DNA from: an uncultured Candidatus Saccharibacteria bacterium
GTDB lineage: Bacteria > Patescibacteriota > Saccharimonadia > Saccharimonadales > SZUA-47
NCBI GenBank assembly: GCA_964536485.1
Contig: CAZHXX010000002.1
Location: 18,647 to 82,646, forward strand
Direction: 5' to 3'
DNA length: 64,000 nt
Below, piece after piece: positions 17,510 to 57,313 of the stretch. How positions within the stretch are numbered: position 1 is the stretch's first letter; each line of letters begins with the position of its first letter. The notes beneath the pieces are model-generated. The model was given only the letters and a program-made list of their open reading frames with translations. It did not search any database and was not told the origin of the DNA. A program made the position numbers and the translations under genes.

Positions 17510-18337
17510 ATGAAAACTACGCTTACTGAACCAATTTATAATCATCAAGCACTTGTCGGGTCCGCTTTCCTGGGTGGCCCGTTGGCATTTGCCTATATGT
17601 CCTACGCGAATTATAAGGTGTTTTCTGCTTTGGCAGATGAAAAAGAGAAGAGTGAAATCACCAAAAAACTATTCCTCTCATTCGTGCCTTTAGCTACTGT
17701 TCTTCTCCTGGTGTTTATGGCACCAACTCGAATCGCAGTGCTGGTAACCGTTCCACTTATTGTTGGCATTGGTTCCCTATGGAAAGAAACCACAGACAGT
17801 TACGTAAAAAATGGCGGAAAGGTATATGGAAACGGGAAGATCCTTCTGACAATGCTTCTCTCTGCTTTGGTATGGGTAGCTAGTGTTATTGGCGTGGTTT
17901 ATGTTGCTGATAAAGATTTTCGGAAAGATTTTGGTCTATCAAGTATTTCACAGCTTGTCATTCCTGGTAATTTCGATGCGGAGAAGTACAACAGCCTTAT
18001 AGATGAATATACTAAGAATGAAGAGGCTGCTTCTGCAATAAATGAAAAAAATACTCAAGTTGCTACAACGCGTCTGCAAGAGCTTGAGGAGACAGAAACC
18101 TTATGGGCAAAAAATGCCTCAATAATTACAAGCTTGCACAATTTGCAGGACAAACCTAAATCAAGAGAAGAGGCTATCCAAGCGCTAGATACCTATACAA
18201 GCTTAAGGGTGAAAGAAAATAGCGCGCTAAAAACTTTTGTAAAAGATCCTTCGAAGGCAAACGAGATTTATCTAGATAATGTGCAAGCTGATCTACAAAA
18301 AGCATATGAAGCAGTTGTTTCACTTTCAAAAAAGTAG
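17510..18337 (+). CDS. membrane protein with C-terminal coiled-coil-like region, unknown function
   Basis: ATG 17510 (MKTTLTEP, aaaagg SD) preferred over track start 17447. About 4 hydrophobic segments followed by a charged helical tail. Confidence 0.5.
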   Translation: MKTTLTEPIYNHQALVGSAFLGGPLAFAYMSYANYKVFSALADEKEKSEITKKLFLSFVPLATVLLLVFMAPTRIAVLVTVPLIVGIGSLWKETTDSYVKNGGKVYGNGKILLTMLLSALVWVASVIGVVYVADKDFRKDFGLSSISQLVIPGNFDAEKYNSLIDEYTKNEEAASAINEKNTQVATTRLQELEETETLWAKNASIITSLHNLQDKPKSREEAIQALDTYTSLRVKENSALKTFVKDPSKANEIYLDNVQADLQKAYEAVVSLSKK

Positions 18338-18365
18338 GTAACTAGCTTTCGTGCTGTCAACATTA

Positions 18366-18374
18366 TGGTATACT
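18366..18374 (+). promoter_or_regulatory. extended -10 promoter (TGgTATACT) for the metK leader
   Basis: tggtatact at 18366-18374. No good -35. Would place the TSS near 18381, just upstream of the candidate aptamer. Confidence 0.35.
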
Positions 18375-18398
18375 TGTATTACTTAACAATTTAAAAGT

Positions 18399-18489
18399 AT
18401 AAAGAGTGCAAGGTAGAGTTCTAGCTCGTCGATCTTGCCAGCAACCACGTAAATTTTTACGAACGGTGCTCCATCTAGCCTGACTTTGT
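18399..18489 (+). ncRNA. candidate SAM-I-clan (SAM-IV or SAM-I/IV-like) riboswitch aptamer in the metK leader
   Basis: Core strings aGAGUG, P2 GCAAG(18408-12)/CUUGC(18434-38), CAGCAACC, P3 hairpin CGUAA-auuu-UUACG, GGUGC. CUAG in the P2 loop and CUAG in J3/4 could form the pseudoknot. P1 AUAAAG(18399-404)/CUUUGU(18484-89). Hand-folded only. Confidence 0.4.
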
Positions 18490-18522
18490 TCAGGAAAAAT
18501 AGTTTTGAATGTATCTTCAATA

Positions 18523-18559
18523 TTCTTTCTTATCCTGAGTACAGCCAGAGAAGAAAGGA
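18523..18559 (+). promoter_or_regulatory. SD-sequestering helix (expression platform) upstream of metK
   Basis: UUCUUUCUU (18523-31) pairs over 9 bp (one G-U) with AAGAAAGGA (18551-59), which contains the metK SD gaaagga. AAAGAG of the P1 5' strand can alternatively pair with UUCUUU. Confidence 0.4.
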
Positions 18560-18566
18560 TATTTTT

Positions 18567-19682
18567 ATGTCATATCAATTATTTACCAGCGAGAGCGTTG
18601 CCGCGGGTCATCCAGACAAGATAGCTGATGCTATTAGTGATGCACTGCTTGACGCGTTGCTTGAGCAGGATCCGTTTGCGCGCGTTGGCCTAGAAACGAT
18701 TGTTGGTGCTAATAAGATTGGGTTGTTCGGCGAGATTAAAACAACTGCTGTGGTTGATATTGAATCAATTGTACGTGCCACGGTAAAACGACTAGGATAT
18801 ACAAACCCGGCTTGGAACTTTTCTTACGAGTCACCTATAGATGACAATATTCATCAGCAGTCACCAGAGATAGCAATCGGAGTAGACAATGACGGCGCTG
18901 GAGACCAAGGGATGATGTTTGGTTTTGCATGCAACGAAACGCCGGAACTTATGCCTCTGCCAATAACGCTTGCACATGCGCTTACGAGGACGCTCGACGC
19001 AAAACGCGAGTCTGGTGAAATTGCATTTTTACGGCCTGACGGTAAAAGTCAGGTAACCGTGAGATATGAGAATGGCGTGCCTACGAAGATAGAGAAGGTT
19101 GTTATGGCAGTGGCGCATGACGAGGAGACGCCAGCAGAGAAAGTGCATCAGATCGTAAAAACAGAAGTAGTTGACGAAGCCTTGAGTGCGTACGGATTTG
19201 ATATTGATGATAGCGAGGTCGTGGTAAACGGCACTGGCTTATGGCATATACCTGGACCAGACACTGACGCAGGCCTGACAGGGAGGAAAATTGTGGTTGA
19301 CGGCTATGGTGGATATGCCAGAGTTGGAGGAGGTGCGTTTAGCGGTAAAGATCCGAGTAAAGTAGACCGTTCTGCTGCGTACGCTGCACGCTACCTTGCA
19401 AAAAATGTTGTAGCCAAAGGTTACGCGAGTAAGTGTGAGGTTGCACTTGCGTACGTCATTGGGAAGGCTAAACCACTGATGCAAGCATTTGATACGTTCG
19501 GGAGCGAGACTGCGCCTCTTGATGAGATTGAGAAGTATATAGCTGGGCTTCTCGATACAAGTGTGAAGGGGATTGTTGAAGGGTTGAATTTAAGAAAACC
19601 AATTTATAGCGCCACTACGGCATATGGTCATTTTGGGAAAAAAGAGTTACCGTGGGAACAGCTAGACAAAAAAACTAGATAA
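18567..19682 (+). CDS. metK: S-adenosylmethionine synthase
   Basis: 371 aa from ATG 18567 (MSYQLFTSESVAAGHPDKIADAISD). GAGDQGMMFGFA, GGGAFSGKDPSKVDRSAAY. Confidence 0.95.
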   Translation: MSYQLFTSESVAAGHPDKIADAISDALLDALLEQDPFARVGLETIVGANKIGLFGEIKTTAVVDIESIVRATVKRLGYTNPAWNFSYESPIDDNIHQQSPEIAIGVDNDGAGDQGMMFGFACNETPELMPLPITLAHALTRTLDAKRESGEIAFLRPDGKSQVTVRYENGVPTKIEKVVMAVAHDEETPAEKVHQIVKTEVVDEALSAYGFDIDDSEVVVNGTGLWHIPGPDTDAGLTGRKIVVDGYGGYARVGGGAFSGKDPSKVDRSAAYAARYLAKNVVAKGYASKCEVALAYVIGKAKPLMQAFDTFGSETAPLDEIEKYIAGLLDTSVKGIVEGLNLRKPIYSATTAYGHFGKKELPWEQLDKKTR

Positions 19683-19691
19683 TAGTATAAT
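19663..19691 (+). promoter_or_regulatory. sigma70-type promoter TAGACA-17-TATAAT
   Basis: -35 at 19663-68, -10 at 19686-91, ATG of the next gene 9 nt downstream (19701). Lies in the metK 3' end. Confidence 0.5.
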
Positions 19692-19700
19692 GTTGCTATT

Positions 19701-20072
19701 ATGGCAAAAGCATTTCTACTCACTGAATCAATGAAAGACACAAGAGTTGCTGAAGTTGTCGACGATGCACTTAGTCGCCCCAACGAATCAGACAGAATTG
19801 ACACACTACATAGGGTGGCAAACTATCAACGAGAAGTTGGTGAAAACAGCAGAAGACTCTCAAAGCCACTCGAAGTTATTGTTCTCGGGGCGGCACTGGG
19901 AGGAATTATTGCTGAAAGACTTGGTCACTCTGGGGTCTCTAAAGCATTGTTAGGTATCGCAGGTGTTGCAACTGTAGTTGAGCTAGGTGCTAGCGCAACA
20001 GAGGCATATAATTTGCGAGCTGCTAACGATATGCTATCGATGGCTGAGCAACTCAAAAAACAATCAGCTTAG
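19701..20072 (+). CDS. hypothetical protein (123 aa) with Gly/Ala-rich hydrophobic segment
   Basis: ORF with its own promoter; no motif recognised. Confidence 0.45.
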   Translation: MAKAFLLTESMKDTRVAEVVDDALSRPNESDRIDTLHRVANYQREVGENSRRLSKPLEVIVLGAALGGIIAERLGHSGVSKALLGIAGVATVVELGASATEAYNLRAANDMLSMAEQLKKQSA

Positions 20073-20109
20073 TTTCATCTAGTACTCGGCCTACTATATA
20101 CTTAGAATA

Positions 20110-21885
20110 ATGAAGCAAATTATACGTATTTTAGGTATTGGCTGGGACTTGCGCAAAAGCTATGCCATCATAGGGCTATGCACCACGTTACTTTCCACTT
20201 CAAGCATACTTGTGCCACTACTTTCTGGGTGGGCAATTGACGAAATCCGGAAAGGGACTGCAACAGACTTGAGCTATGTTCTCTGGATAGCGACCGCCAT
20301 CTTTGCGCTAGATTTTAGCCAGACACTCCTTTCAAACTTTAATGGCTATGTTGGAGACCAGATTCAAGTTAGGCTGCAAAAAATATTAAGTGCTCGCTAC
20401 TATGAGCATCTTATGCAGTTGCCACAGAGTTATTTTGATACCGAACTTACAGGGAAGATTATCAACCGTCTCAATCGCTCTATCGCGCAGGTTACCGGCT
20501 TTATACAAGCGATGACGAATAATTTCTTGCAGTTTATCTTTTCTACACTGTTTAGCTTAGTTGCAATTGCACTTTATAGCTGGCAGGTGGCGCTGATGCT
20601 TTTTGTCCTATACCCAATCTTTATTATCTTGACGATTCGCAGTAGCGGAAAATGGCAAGACTACCAAAAAAAGAAAAACGAACATACTGACATTGCAACT
20701 GGGCGTTTTGCTGAGTCAATCAGCCAGGTGAAGGTAGTGAAAAGTTATATTCAGGAAAAACGCGAACTCGGTTTTTTTGACCGACACTTTACGGTAGTTG
20801 AAAAGACGAACCGCCCACAGTCAAGACATTGGCATGTTCAGGATATAAAACGACGAGTTGTATTGAACCTTATTTTTTATGCGGTGTACGCATTTATTTT
20901 TTATCAGGCTGCACATGGGGTGTTAAGTCCGGGTCAAGCGGTGGCGTTGATCTTGTATGCGATGAATATCAGGATCCCTATTTTTACGATAAGTTGGCTT
21001 GTTGAGCAGACGCAAAAAGCAGTAGCAGACAGTAAGGACTATTTTGAAATTATGTCCATCGCTCCACAGATAAAAGACAAAGAGAATGCCAAAAAACTGG
21101 CAATTAAAAAGGCTGAGATACGATTTGATAATGTGCATTTTAGCTACGAAAAGGGGAAGGGTGTGATACAAGGTGTCACCTTTACGATACAACCTCATAC
21201 GAAAGTCGCTTTAGTTGGGGAGAGTGGTGAAGGCAAAACAACGCTAACAAATTTGCTTCTTCGTTTTTATGAGCCAGAAAGCGGAACAATACTCATTGAT
21301 GATACTTCTATTCTTGATGTCACCCAAGAAAGTTTGCGCGAGAACATCGGGGTCGTTTTTCAGGATGCAAGCTTATTTAGCGGAACAATACGCGAAAATA
21401 TCGCTTACGCGCGACCTTCGGCTAGTGATGAAGATGTACAAAAGGCGGCACGAGCGGCAAACGCGCACGAATTTATTGAAAAACTAGAAAAAGGTTACGA
21501 CACAGAAATTGGTGAGCGAGGGCTTAAGCTCTCTGGTGGACAGAAACAGCGGATAGCGATTGCACGGGCATTATTAAAAGATGCGCCGATACTGATTCTG
21601 GATGAGGCAACGAGTAGTCTTGATAGCAAATCTGAACTGTTGGTCCAGGAAGCATTGGAACGACTCATGAAACATCGCACGACTATTATTATCGCTCATC
21701 GTCTTAGTACCATACAGAACGTAGACACTATTATTGCTCTTAAAGGTGGCAGAGTGTCCGAGCAAGGAAGCCCAAAGGAACTCGCTAAAGGGAGCGGCAT
21801 TTATGCACGACTCTTGGCTGTACAAACAGCACGATCAAGCGAAGAACGTCAAAAAGCACTCGCAAAATTTGGCATCGTTTCTTGA
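20110..21885 (+). CDS. ABC transporter, fused permease/ATPase (MsbA/multidrug-exporter type), paralog of 4338-6137
   Basis: 591 aa. Walker A GESGEGKTT, LSGGQKQR, ILILDEATSSLD. -10 TATACT (20097-102) lies 7 nt before the ATG. Confidence 0.9.
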   Translation: MKQIIRILGIGWDLRKSYAIIGLCTTLLSTSSILVPLLSGWAIDEIRKGTATDLSYVLWIATAIFALDFSQTLLSNFNGYVGDQIQVRLQKILSARYYEHLMQLPQSYFDTELTGKIINRLNRSIAQVTGFIQAMTNNFLQFIFSTLFSLVAIALYSWQVALMLFVLYPIFIILTIRSSGKWQDYQKKKNEHTDIATGRFAESISQVKVVKSYIQEKRELGFFDRHFTVVEKTNRPQSRHWHVQDIKRRVVLNLIFYAVYAFIFYQAAHGVLSPGQAVALILYAMNIRIPIFTISWLVEQTQKAVADSKDYFEIMSIAPQIKDKENAKKLAIKKAEIRFDNVHFSYEKGKGVIQGVTFTIQPHTKVALVGESGEGKTTLTNLLLRFYEPESGTILIDDTSILDVTQESLRENIGVVFQDASLFSGTIRENIAYARPSASDEDVQKAARAANAHEFIEKLEKGYDTEIGERGLKLSGGQKQRIAIARALLKDAPILILDEATSSLDSKSELLVQEALERLMKHRTTIIIAHRLSTIQNVDTIIALKGGRVSEQGSPKELAKGSGIYARLLAVQTARSSEERQKALAKFGIVS

Positions 21886-25825: not shown

Positions 25826-26767
25826 ATGGCTGAAGAATCACAAGTTTATGATGTTGTTATGATAGGAGCGGGCCCCACCAGTTTAGCGGCCGCTGTGTAT
25901 ACGTCTCGAGAAGATATCTCAACTCTAGTTATTGAAAAGGGAATTATTGGTGGTCTTGCCGCTATCACGGACAAGATTGATAATTACCCAGGTTTCCCTG
26001 ATGGGATTGAAGGCATGGAACTTGCAGAAAATTTGCGCAAACAAGCTGAACGCTTTGGCGCAGTAATTGAGCTAGACGAAGTACAAAAGATTGAAAAACA
26101 AGACGGAACTTTTTTGTTAAGGAGTGCAATCGGGAGCTACCGTGCAAAGACAGTGCTTGTCGGGACGGGCTCAGAATGGAAAAAGCTTGGCATACCGGGT
26201 GAGCAAGAGTTCTACGGCCGTGGCGTGCACAACTGCGCAACCTGTGATGGGGCATTTTATCGTGACAAAAAACTCGTTGTTGTTGGGAGCGGAAACTCGA
26301 GTGCTCAGGAAGCACTATTTTTGACTAAATTTGCCAGCCATATCGATATTCTTATCCGTAGCGATGCATGGAAGGCAAGTGATGTCTTGGTGCAAGAAGT
26401 TAACAAAAATGAAAAGATTACCGTACATTTCAACACGTCGCCAGAGGAGATAGCTGGAGGAGATGTCGACGGCATTCACAGAGTCACAAAAGTTGTTGCC
26501 AAGAAGGACGGTGAGAAAGTTGATTTTGTCACTGATGGGGTGTTTGTGTTTATTGGCTTGCGTCCTGTGACATATTTCTTAGAGGGTACAGGTGTTGAGT
26601 TTGATGAAGTTGGCTTTGTGAAGACAGACCAGAAGCTGATGACAGCCGTTCCTGGTATATTTTGCGCCGGTGATGTACGAAGTGGTGCTACGATGCAAAT
26701 AGCGAGTGCTGTTGGCGAAGGAGCGAGTGCGGCGCTTTCAATTCGAGAATATCTCGAGCGACAGTAA
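25826..26767 (+). CDS. trxB: thioredoxin-disulfide reductase
   Basis: 313 aa. GAGPTS FAD motif, CATCDG redox centre, GSGNSS NADPH motif, GDV C-terminal FAD motif. Confidence 0.9.
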   Translation: MAEESQVYDVVMIGAGPTSLAAAVYTSREDISTLVIEKGIIGGLAAITDKIDNYPGFPDGIEGMELAENLRKQAERFGAVIELDEVQKIEKQDGTFLLRSAIGSYRAKTVLVGTGSEWKKLGIPGEQEFYGRGVHNCATCDGAFYRDKKLVVVGSGNSSAQEALFLTKFASHIDILIRSDAWKASDVLVQEVNKNEKITVHFNTSPEEIAGGDVDGIHRVTKVVAKKDGEKVDFVTDGVFVFIGLRPVTYFLEGTGVEFDEVGFVKTDQKLMTAVPGIFCAGDVRSGATMQIASAVGEGASAALSIREYLERQ

Positions 26768-26793
26768 AAAGCCACCTACTACCAATTATAAAG

Positions 26794-26814
26794 CCAGCCG
26801 GAAAGGCTGGTTTT
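26794..26814. terminator. bidirectional rho-independent terminator between convergent trxB and the cytochrome b5-like gene
   Basis: CCAGCC-ggaaa-GGCTGG flanked by an A-run upstream (ataaa) and TTTT downstream. Confidence 0.75.
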
Positions 26815-26843
26815 ATGTTTATATGTGAACTAGTCTAACTATG

Positions 26844-27305
26844 TTATTCTTGCGCGAGTTCACCAAGTTTCAGGCTTCCCAGATGCTCGTAAGCCTCGCT
26901 ACTTCCACTGTGATCCTTCGTGTCGCCTTCCTGGCCGGCTTTTTCTCCTTTACAATATGCCGTTGCGTCTGTCCCGCATGCACTGAGAATATTGTCTCCG
27001 CCGGGATGTTCCTGGATGAATGAAGTGAGATTGTAGACGGAGGAATCGATAATTGTCCAGCAGTCATCTTTTGAGGCGTGCTTTGCTACTTGCTCACGTG
27101 TTGGAGCGCTGTCGAGGGCTTCTACCATATCTTCAGCAGAGTGGTTGAGGTGATGGCCCTCGGCGTCATGCTCAAACCCGCCGTGAGTGCTGGTAGTAGT
27201 TTTTGTTGCTGGCGCATCTTCGTCACCTTGGCTTAGTAGATACGCACCTATGCCCCCACAGACTATAACGCCCGCAATAATACCTACAATGATGTGTTTG
27301 TTCAT
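26844..27305 (-). CDS. membrane-anchored cytochrome b5-like heme-binding domain protein
   Basis: ATG 27305 (gaggagg SD). N-terminal TM. DDCWTIIDSSVYNLTSFIQEHPGGDNILSACGTDAT...DHSGSSEAYEHL equals the b5 pattern (HPGG ... HS). Confidence 0.75.
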   Translation of the reverse strand: MNKHIIVGIIAGVIVCGGIGAYLLSQGDEDAPATKTTTSTHGGFEHDAEGHHLNHSAEDMVEALDSAPTREQVAKHASKDDCWTIIDSSVYNLTSFIQEHPGGDNILSACGTDATAYCKGEKAGQEGDTKDHSGSSEAYEHLGSLKLGELAQE

Positions 27306-27328
27306 TTTGCCTCCTCGCACTTTAACCG

Positions 27329-57265: not shown

Positions 57266-57287
57266 AAATTGTAACGACAAAATTGAA

Positions 57288-57313
57288 AGAGTCGGAAGTT
57301 TCCGACTCTTTTT
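57288..57313 (+). terminator. rho-independent terminator after rplS
   Basis: AGAGTCGGA-agtt-TCCGACTCT (9-bp stem) followed by TTTT. Confidence 0.85.

Follow-up and report, generated by a model that had tools for sequence, protein, structure and literature searches.

A probable SAM-I (S-box) riboswitch with a Shine-Dalgarno-sequestering hairpin in the metK leader of an uncultured Saccharibacteria bacterium

How does a Saccharibacteria bacterium adjust the production of S-adenosylmethionine (SAM)? The question is raised by the leader of metK in a 64,000-nt stretch of DNA from an uncultured Candidatus Saccharibacteria bacterium (hereafter, the window). The original prediction, made from the sequence alone, saw there a SAM riboswitch of the SAM-I clan acting as a translational OFF switch. 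We ask here to which member of the clan this leader belongs and how it would act on the gene. The window leader was compared with 17 metK leaders from Saccharibacteria/Patescibacteria (18 leaders in all), and the following features frame it.

18366-18374, + strand: extended -10 element TGgTATACT, read from the sequence; the inferred start is at about 18381-83
18383-18393, + strand: 5' leader motif UUAACAAUUUA, identical or nearly so in 18/18 leaders
18567-19682, + strand: metK, coding for a 371-aa S-adenosylmethionine synthetase (453.5 bits with TIGR01034, whose cutoff is 309.4)

The gap before metK does measure 229 nt (18338-18566), and the claim that it is the longest non-coding stretch of the window is roughly correct, a mechanical ORF listing giving a gap of 240 nt at 496-735. 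Other large gaps in the window contain small genes. As a separate observation, the window carries two ORFs of 1211 aa that are mutually unrelated. The extended -10 was found exactly where it had been predicted, and TGnTAnnnT also occurs 7-9 nt before TTAACAA in those leaders of relatives whose available upstream sequence extends that far. Transcription would probably start at about 18381-83, judging from the position of this element. In the MFE folds of the window, residues 18386-93 pair with 18506-12 and thereby lengthen P1. This extension was considered as the cause of the conservation of the 5' motif, and it holds for the window and for leaders L162 and L164, not generally.

Compared with Rfam, the whole 64-kb window contains a single detected family, SAM-I (RF00162). 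The match covers positions 18394-18505 on the + strand and scores 44.9 bits (E 5.3e-7), only 0.5 bit above the gathering score of 44.4 bits, and its alignment is full-length (model positions 1-108 of 108). In the clan competition SAM-I outscored the other families and a lower-scoring clan match was suppressed, so that the leader is not assigned to RF01725 or RF00634. The aptamer and metK share a strand and are 61 nt apart, which places the aptamer in the 5' UTR of a SAM-metabolism gene. It contains all of the core strings UAU, AAGAG, GCAACC, GGUGC and AUA. The clan core GAGUG...GCAACC...GGUGC had been correctly recognized, and the leader strings named with it all lie at the coordinates given for them (CAGCAACC at 18439-46, AGAGUG at 18403-08, CGUAA-AUUU-UUACG at 18448-61 and GGUGC at 18465-69). 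The set of nucleotides forming the ligand pocket is invariant in the 18 leaders, namely the U-A and A-U pairs of P1, AAGAG in J1/2, and GCAACC...GGUGC in P3 with its bulged A. We take the pocket roles of these nucleotides to be those of the Thermoanaerobacter tengcongensis riboswitch structure. The window aptamer is predicted to bind SAM. Its parts are as follows.

18394-18401, + strand: P1 5' strand AAAGUAUA, Rfam model positions 1-8, including UAU, which lines the SAM pocket
18402-18405, + strand: J1/2 AAGA, from the Rfam alignment, part of the conserved core and invariant among aligned leaders; the next residue, G18406, opens P2
18406-18439, + strand: P2, parsed by hand against the sequence, with outer pair G18406-C18439 and U18407 bulged
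18408-12/18434-38, + strand: P2a, GCAAG/CUUGC, 4 of its 5 pairs showing compensatory changes
18413-15 opposite 18428-33, + strand: K-turn in P2, GUA opposite GUC-GA-U, parsed by hand against the sequence
18416-18/18425-27, + strand: P2b, GAG/CUC, 100% paired across leaders
18419-18424, + strand: P2 loop UUCUAG
18421-18424, + strand: 5' strand of the pseudoknot, CUAG, within the P2 loop, partner of 18475-78
18440-18470, + strand: P3, from the Rfam alignment, AGCA 18440-43/UGCU 18467-70, with A18444 bulged
18445-46/18465-66 and 18448-52/18457-61, + strand: middle of P3, CC/GG, and its distal stem, CGUAA/UUACG with loop AUUU
18475-18478, + strand: pseudoknot 3' strand CUAG in J3/4, from the hand parse and covariation
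18479-18494, + strand: P4 hairpin, CCUGA 18479-83, loop CUUUGU 18484-89, UCAGG 18490-94, Rfam positions about 80-97, present in the MFE fold
18495-18505, + strand: J4/1 AAA and P1 3' strand AAUAGUUU (18498-505), Rfam positions 98-108

The same aptamer precedes metK in all 17 relatives, that is in 11/11 of the closest (41-58 bits) and in 6 more distant ones. Covariation was assessed on a hand parse combined with a clade covariance model, since RNAalifold missed the SAM-I fold on a plain MAFFT alignment of 7 leaders, in which the loops were misplaced. Across the 18 leaders, 90.3% of the cells of P1-P4 and the pseudoknot are paired, against 34-43% after sliding of the partners; both sides are changed in 16 of 31 pairs, and none of 500 shuffles matches the observed values. 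The check on orthologous metK leaders that had been proposed to decide the matter is thus favorable to the aptamer. The pseudoknot between the P2 loop and J3/4, already suspected from its two CUAG strings, is 100% paired in 18/18 leaders, and in L085 it reads UCGG/CCGA, with 3 of 4 pairs altered on both sides. Outer P3 is likewise 100% paired, CU/AG replacing CC/GG in L163 and L171, and the distal P3 stem varies in sequence among relatives while keeping its complementarity. The MFE fold of 18383-18569 gives P1-P4 followed by a sequestor hairpin and is more stable than shuffled sequences (z -2.4).

Two elements had been declared absent; P4 is present, and a near-consensus K-turn can be read in the sequence. 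P4 forms between CCUGA and UCAGG, is covered by the Rfam alignment, and shows 95.4% of its cells paired in the 18 leaders, 4 of its 5 pairs having compensatory changes. P1 had been misplaced: the proposed pairing of AUAAAG (18399-404) with CUUUGU uses what is in fact the P4 loop, and in the 18 leaders it reaches 52.7% of paired cells, which is the level of shuffles, and zero compensatory changes. The true P1 joins 18394-401 to 18498-505. Its pairs 5-7 (U-A, A-U, U-A) are invariant in 18/18 leaders, and the window copy has two mismatches, G18397xG18502 and A18401xA18498, the latter involving a window-specific A where the other 17 leaders have G.

The K-turn is the second of these elements. The window has the 3-nt bulge GUC followed by G.A at 1b.1n, A.U at 2b.2n and U.G at 3b.3n, and is near-consensus by sequence, the sole change being U for G at 2n. 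A canonical K-turn is found in 6/18 leaders of the clade versus 21/21 SAM-I metK leaders from other phyla. A natural A.U at 2b.2n folds in Kt-23 (PMC2790904), and in the T. tengcongensis riboswitch the G2nU,G3nU double variant still binds SAM with a Kd of 1.95 uM (PMC3651934), so that a K-turn with U at 2n should be compatible with SAM binding.

Altogether, the metK leader (about 18381-18566) is probably a canonical SAM-I (S-box) riboswitch working as a feedback OFF switch. What the analysis shows directly is the identity of the aptamer, its helices and pseudoknot, the conservation of the sequestor described below and the nature of the target gene. Assignment to the SAM-I clan is borne out by the RF00162 match and by covariation; the notion of a variant devoid of P4 is not.

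The output of the switch involves the region between the aptamer and the start codon, where we distinguish the following features.

18519-18531, + strand: anti-SD (anti-Shine-Dalgarno) arm AAUAUUCUUUCUU, the 5' arm of the sequestor, forming 13 bp with 18551-63 in MFE folds
18533-18538, + strand: UCCUGA, which repeats the P4 5' strand and is the candidate partner of UCAGGA 18490-95 in a SAM-free, SD-open fold
18551-18563, + strand: SD arm AAGAAAGGAUAUU, holding the Shine-Dalgarno AAGGA at 18555-59, from MFE folds
18564-18566, + strand: remainder of the U-run between the hairpin and AUG, the full run being UAUUUUU 18560-66

The predicted sequestration of the Shine-Dalgarno proved right and somewhat underestimated. 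The 9-bp core between UUCUUUCUU (18523-31) and AAGAAAGGA (18551-59) lies where it had been located, within a helix of 13 bp that is more stable than shuffles (z -2.7). An SD-sequestering hairpin exists in 18/18 leaders, with dG from -10.5 to -19.7 kcal/mol. Relatives have an equivalent anti-SD arm, (A)UCCUUUC, and in most of them GAAAGGAU(AU)UUUU precedes the metK start; L085 reads GGGAGGUUUU there, and variants occur in several others.

The partner proposed for switching does not stand, however. The P1 5' strand AAAGAG was thought to pair alternatively with UUCUUU, but in the window this helix reaches only -3.9 to -5.8 kcal/mol, and in 18/18 leaders the best alternative partner of the anti-SD arm is the 3' end of the aptamer (P4 3' strand, J4/1 and P1 3' strand), with mean duplex energies of -14.3 kcal/mol versus -4.6 kcal/mol with the 5' end. 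The best duplex that the anti-SD region of the window can make with the aptamer involves UCCUGA (-9 to -10.2 kcal/mol), and the UCCUGA/UCAGGA pairing is present in the best window fold when the SD arm is held single-stranded. Among the 18 leaders the window has the weakest antisequestor duplex, which does not reach significance by itself (z -1.4). Of the 7 leaders folded with the SD arm kept open, 6 take up the antisequestor. We also considered two window-unique changes, 18498 G->A and 18524 C->U, as a compensatory antisequestor pair; one register allows it, but it is not the arrangement preferred by nearest-neighbour energies, and we give it no weight. These models predict an SD-open alternative fold in the window, and in them the leader has both attributes of a translational SD-sequestering platform, an SD/anti-SD helix and a mutually exclusive partner in the aptamer.

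We propose the following scheme. Transcription of the leader would start from the extended -10 promoter at 18366-74, and 18394-18505 would fold as a four-way junction of P1-P4 in which the CUAG/CUAG pseudoknot joins the P2 loop to J3/4. Bound SAM would lock P1 and P4, leaving the anti-SD arm free to pair with the SD arm; the resulting helix would bury AAGGA, 7 nt before AUG, and block initiation on metK. When SAM is low, the 3' end of the aptamer, which is SD-like in sequence, could capture the anti-SD region during synthesis, in the window through pairing of UCAGGA with UCCUGA and flanking A-U pairs, and the SD would be exposed. In the calculations, which contain no ligand term, the SD-closed fold of the window lies 10.6 kcal/mol below the SD-open one, and the closed fold is favoured over the best open fold by 6.5-10.6 kcal/mol in 7/7 leaders tested. 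Since the sequestor fold needs no ligand to be the stabler of the two, we infer that the decision is kinetic and taken co-transcriptionally. The hairpin, together with the conserved U-run, may also terminate some transcripts. The leader would thus be a translational OFF switch and possibly a terminator too.

One could go further and assume that, with the same SAM-I aptamer, transcription termination is the main output, the 13-bp hairpin and U-run acting as an intrinsic terminator with SD burial secondary or added, and the aptamer 3' end pairing with the hairpin 5' arm as antiterminator, as in classical Firmicute S-box leaders. A run of 4-7 U directly follows the hairpin in 18/18 leaders, and it could possibly serve as a terminator U-tract; the SD-AUG spacer of metK is unusually U-rich for the window (6 of 8 residues are U, versus 0-5 elsewhere in it). 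A terminator fold stabler than its alternative suits a kinetic transcriptional switch, at least two clear hairpin and T-run sites lie between genes of this genome (window positions 26787-26817 and 57286-57311), and L004, a more distant relative, carries a GC-rich hairpin with U7 well upstream of metK. The stem of the window is A/U-rich, however, with A-U pairs at its base, just three U are left outside the helix, and a consensus scan of 18000-20200 finds no canonical GC-rich terminator. The hairpin 3' arm is the SD in 18/18 leaders, for which direct sequestration is the simpler account. We therefore consider termination as the main output unlikely. A joint reading, in which the hairpin is both sequestor and terminator, UUAACAAUUUA serves a second input and the clade tolerates extensive erosion of the K-turn, appears to us less likely still.

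The greater stability of the closed fold in all seven leaders could also mean that the sequestor forms with or without SAM and that a second input opens it, as in the SAM-I riboswitch of Xanthomonas (PMC7270179). UUAACAAUUUA, whose invariance in the 18 leaders is not explained by conserved pairing, could then belong to this input. Against this, kinetically controlled riboswitches usually have a stabler OFF fold, the leaders conserve a complementary antisequestor, and no candidate partner was identified, so that we give little credit to this explanation. As to a P4-less, K-turn-less aptamer resembling SAM-I/IV and switching through the P1 5' strand and UUCUUU, six P1 pairs can be drawn for it in the window and SAM-I/IV does precede metK in more distant Patescibacteria (L084, L087 and L090), showing that the clan varies within the phylum, but the covariation of P4 and the failure of the proposed P1 pairing refute it almost entirely, in line with the top clan score of SAM-I, the full-length alignment including P4 and the weakness of duplexes between the anti-SD arm and the 5' strand in 18/18 leaders.

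Returning to the SAM-I switch with SD sequestration, the leader indicates that reduced Saccharibacteria genomes retain metabolite-sensing RNA control of SAM synthesis. In the literature, our searches gave nothing specific on riboswitches native to Saccharibacteria or CPR. A 2024 perspective describes riboswitches as promising candidates for tools in Patescibacteria (PMC11665869), and the compact platform, with its SD within the hairpin, and the K-turn variants could inform such tools, the clade being a source of natural K-turn variants. The locus also calls for caution, as reading a low-scoring SAM-I by eye easily yields a false P4-less variant.

SAM-I ahead of metK is the example on which S-box control was founded. 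The window element is of a known kind, with a proposed feedback control of the textbook type, and is already detected by the Rfam model as it stands. With the SAM-I/S-box riboswitches of Bacillus subtilis yitJ and metK and of T. tengcongensis metF-H2, it shares the P1-P4 four-way junction, the core, a P2 that is predicted to be kinked, the pseudoknot between P2 loop and J3/4, the site before metK and, in the proposed OFF logic, a P1 3' strand that also belongs to the platform. It differs from them by a U at K-turn position 2n, which is G in 21/21 metK leaders from other phyla, by one extra pair and a bulged U in P2a, by a CUAG/CUAG pseudoknot where the Rfam consensus is cuGG/CCug, by an A.A at the top of P1, and by an output hairpin that contains the SD rather than sitting upstream of it. 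SAM-I/IV (RF01725) and SAM-IV (RF00634), of the same clan CL00012, have in common with the window the SAM core made of P1, P2, P3 and GCAACC...GGUGC; unlike it, they are devoid of internal P4 and K-turn and carry other elements 3' of P1, whereas the internal P4 of the window is backed by covariation. A parallel can be drawn with SAM-I(Xcc) of Xanthomonas campestris, a documented translational SAM-I riboswitch, which likewise combines a SAM-I aptamer with an anti-SD/SD platform and whose anti-SD hairpin is stable without SAM (PMC7270179). In Xcc alone, the AUG is sequestered too and extra helices P5-P7 are present; uncharged initiator tRNA (tRNA-fMet) binds its anti-SD (PMC7270179), while nothing in the window points to a tRNA input. 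Finally, the Xcc riboswitch controls a met operon (PMC7270179), whereas the target of the window riboswitch is metK.

The element preceding metK is an ordinary full-length SAM-I riboswitch with a low score. When all 4227 Rfam families were scanned at their gathering thresholds over the whole 64-kb window, RF00162 (SAM-I) was the sole match (18394-18505, + strand; 44.9 bits, gathering score 44.4; E 5.3e-7; all of model positions 1-108). Over 18300-18620, scanning with permissive settings returned the same match, a lower-scoring one from the same clan being suppressed, and no other credible Rfam match. The SAM-I clan had thus been rightly named in the original prediction, which sensed a known element correctly but misread its structure. 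In our literature search, native Saccharibacteria riboswitches were the subject of no paper, but the element is not new on that account. The leader lies between an ORF ending at 18337 (the intervening stretch was read directly) and metK itself at 18567-19682 (TIGR01034, 453.5 bits; cutoff 309.4). A mechanical ORF list gave metK 398 aa through an in-frame TTG extension (18486-18566) overlapping the riboswitch platform; this is an ORF-calling artefact, because homologues start at or near ATG 18567.

Helix assignments rest on the Rfam alignment together with manual parsing, the latter verified base by base against the sequence.

Aptamer elements in the metK leader (+ strand)
P1: AAAGUAUA 18394-401 with AAUAGUUU 18498-505, two mismatches
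J1/2: AAGA 18402-05
P2 outer pair: G18406-C18439, U18407 bulged
P2a: GCAAG 18408-12 with CUUGC 18434-38
P2b: GAG 18416-18 with CUC 18425-27
P2 loop: UUCUAG 18419-24
P3: 18440-70, AGCA-A-CC ... GG-UGCU, distal stem CGUAA/UUACG
J3/4: CCAU, then CUAG 18475-78
P4: CCUGA 18479-83 with UCAGG 18490-94, loop CUUUGU
J4/1: AAA

The unconstrained MFE fold of 18383-18569 recovers all four helices (z -2.4; 2 of 200 shuffles equally stable) and lengthens P1 outward (18386-93 with 18506-12). P4, said to be lacking, is found in the Rfam alignment and in the MFE fold, with covariation; it seemed missing because its loop, CUUUGU 18484-89, had been taken as the 3' strand of P1. All SAM-I features testable by sequence are present, with a probable K-turn that is near-consensus. 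SAM-I/IV (RF01725) and SAM-IV (RF00634) were excluded, since the internal P4 is backed by covariation and SAM-I wins the clan competition.

Among species-representative genomes, the closest MetK matches belong to Saccharibacteria or Patescibacteria MAGs (59-68% identity); a broader protein search gave one identical NCBI protein together with numerous homologues (70-86% identical), some of which bear the name Candidatus Saccharibacteria or Saccharimonadales. Full-length RF00162 precedes metK in all 11 closest relatives (41.1-58 bits, nine above threshold) and is also found in six more distant ones (36.8-56.8 bits). In Patescibacteria further removed than these (54-60% MetK identity), SAM-I/IV takes its place before metK (40-53 bits; L084 1366-1471, L087 1333-1457, L090 1336-1454 and L086 1344-1460), so that both clan members control metK within the radiation. 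In the relative L004, a similar core upstream of metK is followed, by eye, by a GC-rich hairpin and U7. In L172, a 55-codon ORF (437-604) lies between the riboswitch SD/AUG and metK, its stop overlapping the metK start (ATGA), which suggests translational coupling through the inserted ORF.

We collected 17 homologous leaders (L001-L003, L081, L082, L085 and L162-L172), realigned them with that of the window to a clade covariance model, and scored the pairs of P1, P2, outer P3, P4 and the pseudoknot. The covariation supports the SAM-I fold: standard pairs fill 90.3% of cells, versus 34-43% in controls with partners shifted by 1-3 columns, and two-sided changes occur in 16 of 31 pairs (53 cells). 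In 500 shuffles, the observed values for pairing, for two-sided changes (by pair or by cell) and for the covariation score were never reached; the count of further pair types was no better than in shuffles (263/500). Because the structure guided the alignment, these figures lean in its favour; both the hand parse and the shifted controls are consistent with them. P4 is paired in 95.4% of cells, with compensatory changes in four of its five pairs, and the pseudoknot in 100%, CUAG/CUAG being replaced by UCGG/CCGA in L085. The P3 pairs CC/GG become CU/AG in L163 and L171, and by hand parse the distal P3 stem and P4 extensions keep complementarity with wholly different sequences. The P1 originally drawn (18399-404 with 18484-89), on the other hand, pairs in 52.7% of cells, as shuffles do (312/500), with no compensatory change.

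Nor is the K-turn missing as had been stated. Between P2a and P2b, GUA (18413-15) faces GUC-GA-U (18428-33); by hand parse, this gives a three-nucleotide bulge, G1b.A1n, A.U for A.G at 2b.2n and U.G at 3b.3n. We thus read P2 as containing a probable K-turn, one position off consensus. By analogy, published work shows that such a deviation should be tolerable: G2nA and G3nU variants bind normally and the double variant G2nU,G3nU still binds (Kd 1.95 uM; PMC3651934), and the naturally occurring K-turn Kt-23, whose 2b.2n pair is A.U, folds in Mg2+ (PMC2790904). The K-turn is canonical in 6 of the 18 Saccharibacteria-type leaders, versus 21 of 21 SAM-I metK leaders from other phyla; 2n is G, U or A, 1b is sometimes A and bulges span 3-6 nt, with A1n invariant.

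Downstream, AAUAUUCUUUCUU (18519-31) and AAGAAAGGAUAUU (18551-63) form a 13-bp helix that includes one G.U (-14.1 kcal/mol, z -2.7), a sequestor longer than the 9 bp first proposed, covering AAGGA 7 nt 5' of the AUG. An upstream (A)UCCUUUC and, immediately ahead of the start codon, GAAAGGAU(AU)UUUU recur, exactly or in closely similar form, in most of the other 17; the arms of L085 instead read CCUCUC/GGGAGG. Loops and helix extensions vary, the predicted hairpins ranging from -10.5 to -19.7 kcal/mol.

In sequence, the 3' end of the aptamer resembles the SD region (relatives: ...GGAAAGAUAUU... versus GAAAGGAUAUU). We propose that in the SD-open state the anti-SD region would pair with this 3' end, disrupting P4 and P1. 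In all 18 leaders the anti-SD region forms a better duplex with the last 24 aptamer nucleotides (mean -14.3 kcal/mol) than with the 5' end (mean -4.6), and in 17 these also beat any internal segment. Forcing the SD arm single-stranded gave this antisequestor in six of seven leaders, destroying P4 and P1. Switching through the P1 5' strand AAAGAG, as first suggested, reaches -3.9 to -5.8 in the window; the 3'-end partner is stronger in every leader. The window antisequestor, UCAGGA 18490-95 with UCCUGA 18533-38 and a few A-U pairs, is the weakest of the 18 (-10.2, z -1.4). UCCUGA repeats the P4 5' strand just 3' of the anti-SD core, and L165 shows the same design in a perfect 12-bp duplex (-20.7). 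The SD-closed fold is more stable than the SD-open one by 6.5-10.6 kcal/mol without a ligand term, so switching is presumably kinetic. The window alone among the 18 has A at 18498, the first P1 3'-strand nucleotide (others G), and U at 18524 in the anti-SD core (others C), which puts the G.U in the sequestor; pairing of the two in an antisequestor is possible in one register but not favoured by computed energies.

SD sequestration is taken as the main mechanism, with termination, alone or in addition, kept as its main rival. Four to seven U follow the hairpin in 18/18 leaders, no other spacer among the 37 window starts compared is as U-rich as that of metK, and clear hairpin-plus-T-run sites occur elsewhere in the window. 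However, a consensus terminator scan of 18000-20200 found nothing, and the window sequestor stem is A/U-rich. Between the convergent genes 25826-26767 (+) and 26844-27320 (-), a G+C-rich 13-bp hairpin flanked by A- and T-runs (26787-26817) looks like a bidirectional intrinsic terminator.

The predicted extended -10, TGgTATACT (18366-74), fits a TGnTAnnnT kept at constant spacing in those relatives whose leaders reach that far (L081 is too short). From 7-9 nt after it, an invariant TTAACAATTTA(A) (18383-18393) adjoins the P1 5' side, and is seen at the same position in L001-L003, L081, L082 and L162-L172; we infer that transcription would start near 18381-83. P1 is lengthened by the motif in just three leaders, those of the window and of L162 and L164, its two nearest relatives; the motif could mark where transcription starts, bind a protein or serve a second input. 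Many genes in the window lack a Shine-Dalgarno and carry, only 6-10 nt upstream of the ATG, a -10-like box (TG)CTAnnnT (ATGs 7321, 7951, 30691, 31329, 37222, 43115 and 48575; also 19701, 20110, 24719 and 57348), which suggests that leaderless mRNAs are common in this genome.

A precedent for a translational SAM-I riboswitch comes from Xanthomonas (PMC7270179), whose anti-SD hairpin persists without SAM, much like the stable SD-closed fold predicted here. Within SAM-I, the clade stands out by pairing CUAG with CUAG in the pseudoknot, by a nucleotide bulged from P2a, by a K-turn that varies and by an SD inside the output hairpin. These peculiarities are lineage-level variation and make no new class.
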